Virus record (IMG/VR): IMGVR_UViG_3300047494_000107
Span: 46,534-110,533 of that record
DNA: 64,000 nucleotides
Strand: one strand, 5' to 3'
Source: a virus
The translations under genes and the position numbers were made by a program. Below, in pieces: positions 23,032-47,429 of this stretch (the stretch's first letter is position 1; every line of letters starts with the position of its first letter). The notes beneath the pieces were generated by a model. That model made no database searches and had not been told where the DNA came from. It worked only from the letters and a program-made list of their open reading frames with translations.

Positions 23032-23289
23032 TCACCAATGGGTCAGCGGTGCCCGCACGGTGACTGCCCAAGGCGTGGTGGCTGGGGCGGTTTGCAGAAC
23101 AATCCCGACGCTCACTTTCGTTACCCAGACACCCTTATACTGAATGACAACACCAGGAGAGACCTTCGAAAATTGTGCTCCTGTGTTTTGCAGCACAACA
23201 CCAGGAGAGACCTTCGAAATCTCCGCCTGCTGTGCCATTGCGATGCTCGGAAGAAACAACATCAGCCCAGCGACAATCCAACGGATCAC
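23032..23289 (-). CDS. Small exported protein with three (S/T)KVSxG(V/I)V(L/I)Q repeats
   Basis: Signal peptide MIRWIVAGLMLFLPSIAMA; near-identical DNA repeat ACAACACCAGGAGAGACCTTCGAAA twice. Confidence 0.75.
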   Translation of the reverse strand: MIRWIVAGLMLFLPSIAMAQQAEISKVSPGVVLQNTGAQFSKVSPGVVIQYKGVWVTKVSVGIVLQTAPATTPWAVTVRAPLTHW

Positions 23290-24392
23290 GGGATCGTCTC
23301 CACCCCAAAGTCAACGCCGGCAGCGGTCAAATCAGACGGCAACCATGCAACGCCAGTGTTGGGATTTGTCGCCTGAATATAGCTGCTGAAGTTCGAGAAG
23401 CTATTCGTCGGAGCATAGCTGCTGCTGAGATAGTCCGTGCCGCCGACCCGCGTATCGAACTCGAAGTGCTGAGGACCAGACGAACCAACCAATGCCTGAG
23501 CGCTCATCGCTACGCCAAGCACGCTATAACTGCCGCTGGGTAGCGTGTTGTAGATGGCGCAGTTGTGCAGAACGTTGTTCGATGCGCTGTAGGCGTAGTT
23601 AGCTTGGTTCAGCGTCGAAGCATTCCAAATCGACGAGCAGACGTTCGTGCCACTCAAGCCGGTGCTATTGCCATTTGCGTTTGTGTAGGCCGTGAAGACG
23701 CCCATGGCGCGCGTGTCGGTGGTGGCGACGATGACTTCGGACCAGAGACCTAAGTTAGTTTGGGGCACTGCGAACTCGACCTGGTTAAGCGTCGTAGCTC
23801 CATCGCCATTCGTGACGTTACCAGTATAGTCACAGACTTGTGTGCTGTTACTATAAAGAGTAACTTCCCCGCTTGATCCGTAGTTCACATACATGTCGAA
23901 TTGATCAAGCGACGCAGGGATCGCGGATGAACATGTGACAAGGTCGGTAAATGTGCCCCCTGATGTGCGGGATGATATCTTTACCTGGCCATTCGTTCCG
24001 GTGCCTCGCACAATTAATGTCGGGTTTCCGCTGCTATCGTTAATTCGCAACATCTGATAGTTGGACGCCGTCGTGGTTATGCAAGTATTTGAGTTATCGG
24101 TGCAATACTGCCCGTGAATCCAAATAGTAGAATTTCCTGCGAAAGTAGACGTTTGAAACCTGTTCACAGGCGGATCAGAGGCGGAAGTATCGGAAACGTC
24201 ATACGAGCCACGGGACCAGGCTGAGCGGTAAAGCCCAGATGGCGCAGTAAATCCACACGTGCCACCACTCAAGCACGTAAAGTCCGAGTCCTCTTTACCC
24301 ACGAACAATAGCGTCGCTTGCGCCGAGTGCGCTGCACCCAGCATCAGCCCAATCAGCACCAATAGCGGGAAAAGCCGACGAATGAAGTTCAT
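23286..24392 (-). CDS. Exported beta-rich protein resembling a phage virion protein
   Basis: Signal peptide ending AQA; 8 Cys; C-terminal TNPNTGVAWLPSDL. Confidence 0.75.
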   Translation of the reverse strand: MNFIRRLFPLLVLIGLMLGAAHSAQATLLFVGKEDSDFTCLSGGTCGFTAPSGLYRSAWSRGSYDVSDTSASDPPVNRFQTSTFAGNSTIWIHGQYCTDNSNTCITTTASNYQMLRINDSSGNPTLIVRGTGTNGQVKISSRTSGGTFTDLVTCSSAIPASLDQFDMYVNYGSSGEVTLYSNSTQVCDYTGNVTNGDGATTLNQVEFAVPQTNLGLWSEVIVATTDTRAMGVFTAYTNANGNSTGLSGTNVCSSIWNASTLNQANYAYSASNNVLHNCAIYNTLPSGSYSVLGVAMSAQALVGSSGPQHFEFDTRVGGTDYLSSSYAPTNSFSNFSSYIQATNPNTGVAWLPSDLTAAGVDFGVETIP

Positions 24393-24997
24393 GAACCATC
24401 TCCAATAAAGACATAAGCTGCGGCTGAGCCGTTATTCGATATGACCGTCGCACCAATGATTGATTTCGACCCATAGGTGCCCGTGAAGCTGTGTGGCGAA
24501 GTCAGCGTGGCCCCCGAGCCGGCCGACAGAGTGACCTTGGCGGTGCCGCCCTGGATCATCCCGATGTTACACCCGGCCGCTAGGCTGTTAGGTAATGTGA
24601 CGGTTACAGCGCTGTTGGAGCTGAAGTTGATCAAGGTGCCGCAGTCAGAGGCTGCTAGCGTATACGTGGTGCCGCTCTGCGTCGAAACTGCGCCGTAGAC
24701 GGCACCGAACGTCTGTGGACCCGTCCAAGTGTTGGTGCCCGCGAGAGAGACGCCGCCCGTGCTGCATGTCATAGTTCCACTCGAAATTGTACACCCCGAC
24801 AGATTAAGAGGCGTTGCTGCTCCAGCTCCGCCTGTGCCTCCATATATTTGAGACGTTGTGCCGGACGGAATAGCCGACGTAATCGCGCTGGAAAGTTGCC
24901 CCGATGTCACCCCCGGCGGCGGGATAGGTCCGCCAGCAAACGCCTGCGAAACCCCGAGCAGTGCGCACAGCCAAAGTGCGACAAATTTTACCATCAC
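24389..24997 (-). CDS. Exported protein with tail-fibre-tip-like domain
   Basis: Signal peptide ending AFA; LAGTNTWTGPQTF and QSGTTYTLAASDCG...AVTVTLP...YVFIGD. Confidence 0.75.
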   Translation of the reverse strand: MMVKFVALWLCALLGVSQAFAGGPIPPPGVTSGQLSSAITSAIPSGTTSQIYGGTGGAGAATPLNLSGCTISSGTMTCSTGGVSLAGTNTWTGPQTFGAVYGAVSTQSGTTYTLAASDCGTLINFSSNSAVTVTLPNSLAAGCNIGMIQGGTAKVTLSAGSGATLTSPHSFTGTYGSKSIIGATVISNNGSAAAYVFIGDGS

Positions 24998-25602
24998 TGG
25001 AACGCCTCGCCGGCCAGCGTCGCGGACGCTGAGACCATGATGCAGTTAATCGCCGCATTCCCAACCGTGGGGTAATCCCACTCATAGCCGCCGCCCGGCT
25101 GTATGCGGACGCCGTAATTGAGAACAGCCGACGCACCGTCAGAGCGGCACCAAGCGTCGTTGCCGCTGCCCGCAGTTGCGAGGCTGTAAATGACGACGCG
25201 CGCCCGCGTGCCGGTCGAGGCGGCCACGACGGGGGTTGCGGACGTCGAAGCGGAGACCGAAAAAGCGGACGTGGTCGCCGCCACAGGGGGTGCCGCAGCG
25301 GTGATATGGGACGGAACACCCCCGTCAGAATTGAGCGTATAAGGCCAAAAGTTGCCGGTTGGCGGGGTCACAAACCAAGGCGAAGAAGACGACCCCTGAG
25401 CCCCTTGGGTGACCGTACCGCCCCCTCCGCCCCCGTTTAGGTTGTAGACCACAGACGCCCTGGAGCAGTCCGACAGCAAGACCTGGTTGAGTGGTACCCC
25501 GGCAGGACAACCTGTCACCGCATTGCCGGGCGTCTGAGCACGGGCGCCTGTGGCGCCCCAGACCCCGCAAATGAGAAACACTAAAGCAAGCAGAATCCGC
25601 AT
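24994..25602 (-). CDS. Exported beta-rich protein
   Basis: GGAGG RBS; signal peptide MRILLALVFLICGVWGATGARA; 4 Cys in the mature part. Confidence 0.75.
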   Translation of the reverse strand: MRILLALVFLICGVWGATGARAQTPGNAVTGCPAGVPLNQVLLSDCSRASVVYNLNGGGGGGTVTQGAQGSSSSPWFVTPPTGNFWPYTLNSDGGVPSHITAAAPPVAATTSAFSVSASTSATPVVAASTGTRARVVIYSLATAGSGNDAWCRSDGASAVLNYGVRIQPGGGYEWDYPTVGNAAINCIMVSASATLAGEAFQ

Positions 25603-25729
25603 GACCGCCTCCAAGGAGGCAGCATTTTAAGACGTCTCAGTCTTTAGACGGCAGGGTTGCTGTCTGCCTTCAGGTCGACAAGTATGTTCTTATAGTCACA
25701 AGGTAGCAACACGGCGTTAAGCGGTCTAA

Positions 25730-25916
25730 AATCCTTTCAACTCGTACTCCGCCTATTGAGCTTTTTGACCGCCTAGAGGTGCAAAAAGTTGAAAGGATTG
25801 GCGTATATACGCGGCTGTCGTCGCATTACAAAACCGCTGCACTACCGCTGTGCTAACCCGGCGGACTGTTGTTTTCGATATATTTTATGGCGGCTCTAAC
25901 CGCTAATTTCAACTCG
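25730..25916. promoter_or_regulatory. attP region with candidate integrase arm-type sites
   Basis: 13-bp inverted repeat AATCCTTTCAACT (25730-25742) / AGTTGAAAGGATT (25787-25799); TTTCAACTCG at 25735 and 25907, on either side of the core; palindrome GCGTATATACGC at 25801-25812. Confidence 0.7.
25826..25862 (-). other. attP core: 5' half of tRNA-Thr(UGU), 37 nt
   Basis: GCCGGGT-TA-GCAC-AGCGGTA-GTGC-A-GCGGT-TTTGTAA gives acceptor 5' strand, D arm and anticodon loop (TGT); tRNA similarity then stops; 46 bp from integrase stop. Confidence 0.85.
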
Positions 25917-27006
25917 CTTTCTGGGCCACTTTCGACTCATGCCGCTTGCCCGACCTCAGTTTACGCATCGCACCCTCAGCAAACGTCCGGTCAGGTCTGA
26001 CGTATACCGACAGCACATTTCGGCTTTTGTGGCCGGTTATCGCCCTGATTTGGTCCTCCGAACACCCTGCAGCCCCGAGCGCCGTGGCCAGAGTGCGCCG
26101 CAAATCACGAAACTGCAGATCGTCCGGCAGCCCTGCCAGCGCTCTTAGGCCGGCAAATCGGTGTTGAAAGTCACTTTCAGCGTAGGGTCGCCCCGTGGCC
26201 TCGGAGACGACGATAGGGCCATTTTCGACTCGCGGGGTTGTCTCCAGCAGCCGGCGGAGTTCAGGGAGCGCCGGCACCCAGACTGCGGCGCCCGTCTTCT
26301 CCTGGCGCAGCAAGACAGCCTTCCCGTCATACGCCGCCCAGGACAGCTTGCGGAGGTCGGCCGGGCGTTGGCCCAGGCACCAGCCCAGCATCACGGCCAA
26401 GGCCATGCTTGGGCGGCCAGCTTCAACGGCCTTGGCGCAGAAAACGTCGCGCTCATTGATCGTCCAGACCCGTGAGCGACTATCCGGCACGGACACCATC
26501 ATCTTGAGCGCCGGGTTCTTGTCAATCCAACCCTCGTCGACCCCAAAACTCAACAGGCGGCGCAGAGCGGCAATCGCGTTACGGGCGGCGGATTCACCGC
26601 GATCGGCTTTCAGACCCCGGTACCAGTTCTTAACCATTTTACGCTCAAGCAGGGCTACAGAAGATTCACCCGCAGCGTCTAGCGCCGGCTTGATGTTGTA
26701 GAGGTAGTCGCGCTGAGTTCGCGGAGCCATGTCGACCATGAACTCCTCGTCGGCCTGGAACAGGTCGTGAAGAGCCAGTAGGCTATCCGACCGGTAAGAT
26801 GGACCTGTCTTGGGTTCTTGCTTACGGCGCCACTGATCCAATTCCGCGTTCAGGCGCTCAGCTGCGACGATGGCCTGTATGCGGTCGTCGGGGAGACGAC
26901 GAGGGATGAACCCGGCGGCGAGGAGTTTTGGAGTCGGTTGCCAATACCAGAGCGTACGGCCTTTAAGGGGCCGCTTTACCAGATACCGGACGCCGATGTC
27001 CCGCAC
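25909..27006 (-). CDS. int: Tyrosine integrase
   Basis: GQRPADL (R), QEKTG (K), FRDLRRT, ITGH, SVY catalytic residues. Confidence 0.95.
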   Translation of the reverse strand: MRDIGVRYLVKRPLKGRTLWYWQPTPKLLAAGFIPRRLPDDRIQAIVAAERLNAELDQWRRKQEPKTGPSYRSDSLLALHDLFQADEEFMVDMAPRTQRDYLYNIKPALDAAGESSVALLERKMVKNWYRGLKADRGESAARNAIAALRRLLSFGVDEGWIDKNPALKMMVSVPDSRSRVWTINERDVFCAKAVEAGRPSMALAVMLGWCLGQRPADLRKLSWAAYDGKAVLLRQEKTGAAVWVPALPELRRLLETTPRVENGPIVVSEATGRPYAESDFQHRFAGLRALAGLPDDLQFRDLRRTLATALGAAGCSEDQIRAITGHKSRNVLSVYVRPDRTFAEGAMRKLRSGKRHESKVAQKAS

Positions 27007-27265
27007 TCATCCGCTCCATCAAGATCGCTCGCTCATCTTCGCGCGGGTCGCCAGCGCCGACAACCTGCCATCGCCGCCGCACCCACGCCTCGACGGCCTC
27101 GACGGCGTAGAGCCCATAGAACGGGTCGGGCTTGGGGAAGTCAGGGGGCAGGTTGGCCTGCACCCATAGGACGGGGCGGCGAAACACCCGATCGGCCACC
27201 TCGCTGATCGTCATCGTCAGCGGTGTCCAATCGTACCGCTTGTGCCGTGGAGCGCGGGTCATCAC
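26963..27265 (-). CDS. Excisionase-like protein
   Basis: MTISEVA...DFPKPD...YAVEAVEAW AlpA/Xis-like pattern directly upstream of int. Confidence 0.6.
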   Translation of the reverse strand: MMTRAPRHKRYDWTPLTMTISEVADRVFRRPVLWVQANLPPDFPKPDPFYGLYAVEAVEAWVRRRWQVVGAGDPREDERAILMERMSAGHRRPVSGKAAP

Positions 27266-46491: not shown

Positions 46492-47429
46492 CAGACGTCC
46501 TCCTTCGGGCGCCCGTTTTCATCCAACGTGTACCAAACATAAGGTTTGATACCGTCTCTCCCCACGATTCCGGCCCACGCGTGGGTGATGTTCCAGTCGT
46601 CGTCTCGTCGCGCTAAAAACAAAGCGTTTCCTGTAACGCCCATGACGCGACCGTACTTGCCGGATGACATTGCGGCGGACCGGTCGCCCGTGGAGGAGGC
46701 GGCGGACTGATCGCCCGTGGAGGAGGCGGCGGACTGGTAGCCCGTGGAGGAGGCGGCGGACTGGTAGCCCGTGGAGGAGGCGGCGGACTGGTCGCCCGTG
46801 GAGGAGGCGGCGGACTGGTCGCCCGTGGAGGAGGCGGCGGACTGGTAGCCCGTGGAGGAGGCGGCGGACTGGTCGCCCGTGGAGGAGGCGGCGGACTGGT
46901 AGCCCGTGGAGGAGGCGGCGGACTGGTAGCCCGTGGAGGAGGCGGCGGACCGGTCGCCCGTGGAGGAGGCGGCGGACTGGTAGCCCGTGGAGGAGGCGGC
47001 GGACCGGTCGCCCGTGGAGGAGGCGGCGGACTGGTAGCCCTCGACGTGCTTGCTCCCCGTAGCCGTTGCTCGCGCGATCACCCATTCGATGGCGCGCTTG
47101 ACAAGATCGGGAATCTTGATCTCAGCGTCGATGGTGATGCGCGCGCTGGCGATCTTCGCGTCATCGGCGCTCTCACGTGATGTTTCGCCGGACTGCCGAA
47201 CATCCGCGTAACGAGAGGCGCCGGGCGCATAGTAGCTGAACACGCTGAGCGGATGATGGTCGACGCTGCACGCGTGAAAACCAGACTGGCAGGCGATGAC
47301 AGGTCCGACATGCTCGTAGGTCTTGCCGACCTCGAACTGATAGCCACGACATTTCCAGTCGAGGTCAAAGCCTTTAATTGACGCGATCTCTTCATCTGTA
47401 TCCGACGGTGTTGCGTTCTCGCTGTCCAT
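46491..47429 (-). CDS. Phage nonapeptide-repeat protein (KGFD...CRGYQFEVG...CQSGFHAC family)
   Basis: Characteristic N-domain; 14 G(Y/D)(Q/R)SAASST-type units; C-terminal GRDGIKPYVWYTL. Confidence 0.85.
   Translation of the reverse strand: MDSENATPSDTDEEIASIKGFDLDWKCRGYQFEVGKTYEHVGPVIACQSGFHACSVDHHPLSVFSYYAPGASRYADVRQSGETSRESADDAKIASARITIDAEIKIPDLVKRAIEWVIARATATGSKHVEGYQSAASSTGDRSAASSTGYQSAASSTGDRSAASSTGYQSAASSTGYQSAASSTGDQSAASSTGYQSAASSTGDQSAASSTGDQSAASSTGYQSAASSTGYQSAASSTGDQSAASSTGDRSAAMSSGKYGRVMGVTGNALFLARRDDDWNITHAWAGIVGRDGIKPYVWYTLDENGRPKEDV
46672..47040. repeat. 27-bp tandem repeat, 13 full units plus 1 partial
   Basis: Invariant CCCGTGGAGGAGGCGGCGGAC core with variable first codons. 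Confidence 0.95.

Follow-up and report, generated by a model that had tools for sequence, protein, structure and literature searches.

A tRNA-Thr(UGU) 5′ half next to an integrase gene as the probable attP core of a large phage of alphaproteobacteria

The virus record considered here comprises 110,533 bp with direct terminal repeats and is rated complete; the window, i.e., the whole stretch of 64,000 nucleotides that was analysed, corresponds to its positions 46534–110533 and has a GC content of 60.5%. The virus appears to be a temperate tailed phage of about 110 kb with an alphaproteobacterial host. The locus of interest lies on the minus strand, where an integrase gene is followed by a short spacer, half of a tRNA gene, and a group of genes for predicted exported proteins. 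Its features are as follows:

25909..27006, minus strand: tyrosine integrase of the lambda Int type, 365 aa (P0001), assigned by PF00589, phrog_1, and alignment with lambda Int
25903..25937, minus strand: putative P-arm repeats AGTCGAAAG (from 25937) and AGTTGAAA (25914..25907), located in the int 3′ end and the spacer, the two being looser copies of the flanking motif
25884..25912, minus strand: promoter-like element TTGAAA-17-CATAAA upstream of the tRNA half, agreeing with the consensus at 9 of 12 positions
25826..25862, minus strand: probable attP core, identical to tRNA-Thr(UGU) from position 1 through the whole anticodon loop (exact 5′ half), identified from host and related att sites
25826..25833, minus strand: probable crossover (overlap) region TTTTGTAA, the anticodon loop plus one base, deduced from the segment shared by related sites
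25730..25799: putative P′-arm perfect 13-nt inverted repeat AGTTGAAAGGATT, at 25787–25799 on the plus strand and 25730–25742 on the minus strand, found by repeat search
23032..25614, minus strand: four co-oriented, overlapping genes, each with a predicted N-terminal signal peptide in its translation

The integrase gene, the tRNA half, and the flanking repeats

The integrase gene ends with a TGA codon at 25911..25909. Its product matches PF00589 with 51.1 bits (cutoff 27.1) and the phrog_1 integrase family with 1.9e-32, and it can be aligned with residues 40–346 of lambda Int; in this alignment, R214, K237, R303, H326, and Y335 occupy the catalytic positions. The equivalent of lambda H308 is Arg, as it is in the consensus of the integrase clade described below, and the activity of the enzyme is therefore only assumed. 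Between the gene for DNA polymerase A and int, a 100-aa ORF (26963–27265, minus strand) overlaps the integrase start. It has no Pfam or PHROG match and is, by position only, a candidate excisionase or regulator.

A spacer of 46 nt separates the int stop from tRNA position 1 at 25862. From there to 25826, the minus strand reads GCCGGGT (acceptor 5′ strand), TA, GCAC AGCGGTA GTGC (D arm), A, GCGGT (anticodon 5′ stem), and the 7-nt loop TTTGTAA, with the anticodon TGT at 25830..25828; past 25826, the sequence continues as TGCGAC and bears no likeness to tRNA. The 37-mer is present once in the window, and none of 100 shuffles matched it even when 3 mismatches were allowed. ARAGORN found no complete tRNA anywhere in the window, so the 37-mer is a half and not a gene. 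The tRNA alignment that was forced on this half with Rfam scored a sub-threshold 13.6 bits and is uninformative for a half gene. The sequence-only reading that preceded this analysis had recognized these 37 nt as tRNA-Thr(UGU) from position 1 through the anticodon loop, placed at attP, and the exact copy found at 25862..25826 upholds this. It is very probable that the 37-mer forms the core of the phage attachment site and that the adjoining integrase recombines it with the host tRNA-Thr(UGU) gene.

The same reading had proposed that comparison of the 37-mer with alphaproteobacterial tRNAs would predict the host, and at the level of class it does. Exact matches were found in at least 120 species-representative genome records, nearly all from Alphaproteobacteria; among the matches listed, the 37-mer starts an intact tRNA-Thr(TGT) gene in 115 of 120, and the taxa include many Acetobacteraceae (Roseomonas and allies, Acidiphilium), as well as Reyranella, Xanthobacter, Ancylobacter, Bosea, and Rhodoblastus. 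A single intact copy was found in each of four genomes that were searched in full. The predicted host is accordingly an alphaproteobacterium, the matches listed coming chiefly from Acetobacteraceae, Reyranella, and Xanthobacteraceae; the core is too conserved to narrow the host below class.

The core is flanked on both sides by a repeated motif, AGTTGAA(A/C)GGAT, which is kept in relatives. At the P-arm position, relatives carry two to three copies of (A)GTTGAAC or GTTCAACT. On the other side, AGTTGAAAGGATT has no perfect copies within the 64 kb besides the two of the inverted repeat, and a copy of ATCCnTTCAACTTTTT lies about 30 nt past the anticodon loop in every related attP. These flanking motifs may be regarded as putative arm-type binding sites. 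In the attP cores of L222 and L146, the stem is lengthened into the inverted repeat GCAGCG ... CGCTGC, of which the window has a less perfect version.

Relatives of the integrase and the reversed geometry

The exact 37-mer occurs in five other viral contigs (L002–L006). In three of them (L003, L005, and L006), the half stands directly behind a co-oriented integrase gene and there is no whole tRNA; the L006 integrase is 59% identical to that of the window, and those of L003 and L005 represent a second, more distant lineage. In L004, an integrase gene (60% identical) is followed by a whole tRNA-Thr, about 940 bp from the contig end. The remaining contig, L002, contains a complete tRNA-Thr(UGU) with identical 5′ 37 nt (L002:6421-6495) inside a replication module encoding a RecD-like helicase, PolA with a UDG domain, and AAA_24, with no integrase nearby; the region upstream of this tRNA resembles the upstream region of host tRNA genes (GGGCGGGTCGTG, present in the bacterial genome G342 too).

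Further relatives were gathered by contig scans with integrase alignment. At about 37–67% integrase identity, they occur in two states, in which int is followed either by the half only (attP) or by an intact tRNA-Thr (attR). The attP state is seen in the window, L145, L146, L219, L222, and L223. The attR state, with an intact co-oriented tRNA-Thr(TGT) 53–114 nt past int, is seen in L144, L212–L218, L224, L231, and L238, and the same arrangement with a broken int in four more contigs (L253, L254, L256, and L263). In all reversed relatives, i.e., those in which int and the tRNA are co-oriented, tRNA likeness starts exactly at position 1, and in the attP forms (window, L145, L146, L219, L222, and L223) it ends exactly past the anticodon loop TTTGTAA. 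The expectation that integration leaves an intact tRNA gene behind phage int, with its native upstream region displaced, is thus matched by at least 11 attR contigs of relatives. In L211, whose integrase is the closest at 62% identity, no tRNA piece was found in the 330 nt that follow int.

The attR contigs are short metagenomic contigs, and chromosomal synteny was seen for one of them: the DNA past the tRNA in L215 is syntenic with the chromosome past tRNA-Thr in L007, L010, L015, and L110, these including empty sites such as L015. In blastn comparisons with 120 bacterial loci, the downstream flanks of nine other attR contigs had no match, and none of the integrase-side flanks matches the bacterial loci. 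Of the two junctions whose mapping in integrated relatives had been suggested beforehand, attR was found in the clade and attL was not recovered; neither the window phage nor its reversed relatives of the same integrase clade yielded an attL/attR pair. In the bacterial genomes L007, L032, L038, and L049, arm motifs of the AGTTGAAC type occur no more than 80 nt upstream of intact tRNA-Thr, and fragments of an integrase C-terminus are also present upstream of tRNA-Thr in L007/L137; the motifs probably mark prophage ends of the same reversed type that have since decayed.

A maximum-likelihood tree of 41 integrases, rooted only at the midpoint, confines the reversed state to one clade of 17 (support 100/98), which includes 15 reversed members, one of unknown state (L211), and one of the usual orientation (G342). 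Outside groups with a known state are all convergent on a tRNA 3′ end (Thr-UGU, Thr-CGU, Met, Arg, and Lys). With the distant out-rows taken as the outgroup in this midpoint-rooted tree, a single change to the reversed geometry and a single reversion would account for the states most simply. The reversed clade would then have arisen among relatives of the usual orientation, carrying the 3′ half and mostly also targeting tRNA-Thr. As far as the tree indicates, the reversed geometry is no one-off and is inherited throughout a group of alphaproteobacterial phage integrases. It had been raised as an objection that relatives might integrate elsewhere; this is mostly refuted, 13 of the 15 reversed relatives in the tree using tRNA-Thr(UGU) and the other two being a pair at tRNA-Leu(CAA). 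In this subclade (L220 and L221, integrase identity 49%), an intact co-oriented tRNA-Leu(CAA) lies about 63 nt past int, i.e., the reversed geometry has been transferred to another tRNA gene. The int-tRNA spacer of these two contigs contains AGTTGGAA repeats.

When 401 bacterial genomes from the family to which G002 (Pseudoroseomonas globiformis KCTC 52094) belongs were searched with the integrase, two matches were obtained, G342 and G106, and no reversed lysogen was found among these species-representative genomes. The G106 match targets tRNA-Lys. In G342, int (58% identity) has the usual orientation, converging on the 3′ end of the same tRNA-Thr gene, and the 10.6-kb element is bounded by a direct repeat running from the anticodon loop to the tRNA 3′ end. 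On the midpoint-rooted tree, this orientation is consistent with flipping about the near-palindromic anticodon stem-loop. The only complete reversed attL/attR pair found, with a repeat of 41 nt, belongs to G002 itself. Its 19.9-kb island (contig C2, 38134 to 58000) has an orphan tRNA-Thr 5′ half at the left end (L133:2135-2171) and the intact gene at the right end (L134:8001-8072). The island integrase, of 357 aa and 29% identical to that of the window, is located on the opposite side of the core when compared to the window. Its gene starts 184 nt past the orphan half, reads away from it, and is followed by a PriCT_2/AAA_25 primase-helicase gene; the host tRNA promoter points straight into this int.

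The segment TTTTGTAA is the only one common to the 5′-half repeats of the clade and the 3′-half direct repeat of G342, which makes the anticodon loop the most likely overlap region. We infer that strand exchange most likely takes place within this 7–8 bp segment. In two further genomes, G003 (L135:5935-6146) and G001 (Bosea sp. 117, L136:5212-5422), an orphan tRNA-Thr 5′ half precedes the intact gene by only about 100 nt; G003 has a tandem duplication of the half together with its leader of about 72 nt. The G001 orphan half departs from the intact gene by compensated changes in the D stem (GCAC/GTGC vs. GCTC/GAGC), which places the exchange 3′ of the D arm. These orphan halves look like the minimal scar, or a very small cassette, of an element of the reversed type.

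Transcription after integration and alternative readings of the site

Since attP carries the 5′ half, the prophage would lie upstream of the restored tRNA gene. At attR, phage int would be followed by the 46-nt spacer and an intact tRNA composed of the phage 5′ half and the host 3′ half; at attL, the host promoter would be followed by the orphan 5′ half (the 37-mer, with TGCGACGACAGCC after it) and the phage P′ arm. The target would be the single host tRNA-Thr(UGU) gene. With the native upstream region of the tRNA displaced, tRNA-Thr(UGU) of the lysogen would therefore be expressed from phage-borne signals, either a promoter between int and the tRNA or read-through from int, or the two together. 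For a single-copy tRNA, a promoter on phage DNA would logically be needed, read-through from int being a possible route.

The candidate for a dedicated promoter is the element TTGAAA-17-CATAAA, which is present as the sequence-only reading had described it, overlapping the int stop. TTGAAA lies at 25912..25907 and, after a 17-nt spacer, CATAAA at 25889..25884 (minus strand), with TAAAAT at 25887..25882 (minus strand) as an alternative −10 hexamer. Its score of 9/12 is reached by 1.5% of shuffled leaders. Scoring of this kind fails to tell the native tRNA promoters of the hosts from shuffles either, so that consensus sigma-70 scoring, blind to native promoters, cannot decide the promoter question. 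A sigma-70 scan did not call the element, because CATAAA lacks the final T. The attR contig L217 has TTGGAA-17-CATAAA at the same distance, ending at the same −22 position, and an A/T-rich leader is common to the window, L215, and L217 at integrase identities of only about 60%. TTGAAA, however, doubles as one of the arm-type repeats (AGTTGAAA), and a different conserved leader, GCTAAGTCATTGAAAT, is found in most relatives, where it abuts the tRNA and has no −35 element at a usable distance. From these comparisons, TTGAAA-17-CATAAA as the phage promoter of the restored tRNA is only plausible.

The 16 nt before tRNA position 1 read GCTAAG(T/C)CnTTGAAAT in most reversed relatives (L212–L214, L216, L219, L222, L224, L231, L238, L253, L145, and L146), whose spacers are divergent outside these 16 nt. 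Read on the other strand, this sequence nearly fits the IHF consensus; GCTAAGT in the leader resembles host −10 elements (gCTAnnn) at the same distance.

The alternative that fares best also accepts the site as attP and proposes that the restored tRNA has no dedicated phage promoter, being transcribed by read-through from int or genes further upstream and released by RNase P and 3′ processing. No terminator was called between int and the half, and the distance from the int stop to tRNA position 1 is just 14 nt in L003 and L005, too short to accommodate a promoter in the spacer. However, with a single intact copy in each of the four genomes searched, the sole decoder would hang on a gene normally expressed weakly in lysogens, and the A/T-rich leader has been kept in the window, L215, and L217 at the integrase divergence given above. 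Read-through as the only source of the tRNA is a possibility, less likely than not.

A second alternative, which is the full model of the sequence-only reading, adds a transcriptional switch to attP: the spacer promoter TTGAAA-17-CATAAA would take over the tRNA, and the displaced host promoter, its transcript crossing the orphan half and the P′ arm, would drive the four downstream genes in lysogens. The geometry is correct for this, as the four co-oriented genes, all with predicted signal peptides, begin 220 nt past the core (first ATG at 25602), and no intrinsic terminator was called on the minus strand between 25825 and 25602. The promoter-like element also recurs in L217, and host tRNA promoters were shown to drive element genes upon integration in ICEKp1, ICEclc, and ICEEc1 (PMC13023037). 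On the other hand, the downstream genes are not co-oriented in five of six related attP contigs: in L145, L146, L223, L003, and L005, genes past attP face the core or there is no clear co-oriented gene, and only L219 has a co-oriented ORF next to attP. The RNA between the core and the first gene has unusually strong structure (z = −3.96), with a hairpin enclosing the ribosome-binding site of this gene. In PHROG, the four genes match virion structural proteins and phrog_6368 only weakly, and late expression is conceivable on this account; their nearest Atlas clusters are viral hypothetical proteins. The arm-repeat nature of TTGAAA and the GCTAAGTCATTGAAAT leader of most relatives also speak against such a switch, which is unlikely on balance. 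The fuller version, in which a phage promoter with its −35 element overlapping an Int arm site would control the sole tRNA-Thr(UGU) while the host promoter switches on four Sec-exported proteins, is less likely still. If true, this dual rewiring would constitute a lysogenic-conversion switch built into the att-site geometry, with the four-gene cassette on only in the prophage, and the promoter exchange would offer a simple system in which to study phage control of a single-copy host tRNA. In the hairpin (25603–25625, minus strand), the GGAGG Shine-Dalgarno sequence of the first signal-peptide gene is predicted to pair with an upstream CCUCC, which might gate translation of this gene.

The reading of the 37-mer as the decayed remnant of a phage-borne tRNA-Thr gene and not an att site, for which the whole tRNA-Thr(UGU) with the same 5′ half inside the replication module of the phage contig L002 can be cited, is highly improbable and was rejected, as the half starts exactly at position 1 and ends exactly at the loop in six independent contigs with unrelated flanks, always stands just past an integrase gene, where intact-tRNA counterparts occur in relatives, and has arm repeats on both sides.

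In practical terms, programs that find prophage boundaries by expecting a 3′ tRNA fragment and an int converging on it will set the ends of these prophages wrongly.

Comparison with known systems

Lambda Int is a heterobivalent tyrosine integrase with arm-type sites. The window integrase is alike over the aligned residues, with R, K, R, H, and Y kept, and its attP likewise has repeated arm-like motifs on both sides of the core, to which the binding of Int is only presumed. The differences when compared to lambda are the low sequence identity, the tRNA-gene target, and the Arg at the H308 equivalent.

Among tRNA att sites, Williams reportedly distinguished in 2002 an anticodon-loop class. In the window, too, identity with the tRNA gene stops at the anticodon loop, which stands between the two strands of the anticodon stem, an inverted repeat, as in that class; however, the identity extends from there to the 5′ end of the gene instead of the 3′ end. 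Zhao and Williams, also in 2002, are said to have described integrative elements that reverse the usual orientation of the tRNA target. These elements reportedly carry the tRNA 5′ part, leave an orphan 5′ fragment at one end and the restored gene behind element DNA at the other, and supply the upstream region of the gene, in all of which the window would resemble them. What differs here is the 110-kb tailed phage of alphaproteobacteria, the target tRNA-Thr(UGU), and the distribution of the geometry over a whole integrase clade, of which a single member has the usual orientation.

Genes of ICEKp1, ICEclc, and ICEEc1 can be transcribed from a host tRNA promoter, and this only when the element is integrated (PMC13023037). 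The effect was measured in those elements, where int is preceded by a whole tRNA in the usual orientation, whereas the transcript of the window phage is a prediction from sequence and would start with a truncated tRNA.

Recombination with the 5′-distal part of a tRNA gene is considerably rarer than that with the 3′ part (PMC6563490); for the 5′ part, that article cites Zhao and Williams (2002) along with a few examples from archaea and viruses. The window provides a clean, sequence-complete example of this rare 5′-half attP in a large temperate phage. The reversed 5′-half attP is a rare but already known layout, to which the distribution at the level of an integrase clade adds modest value.
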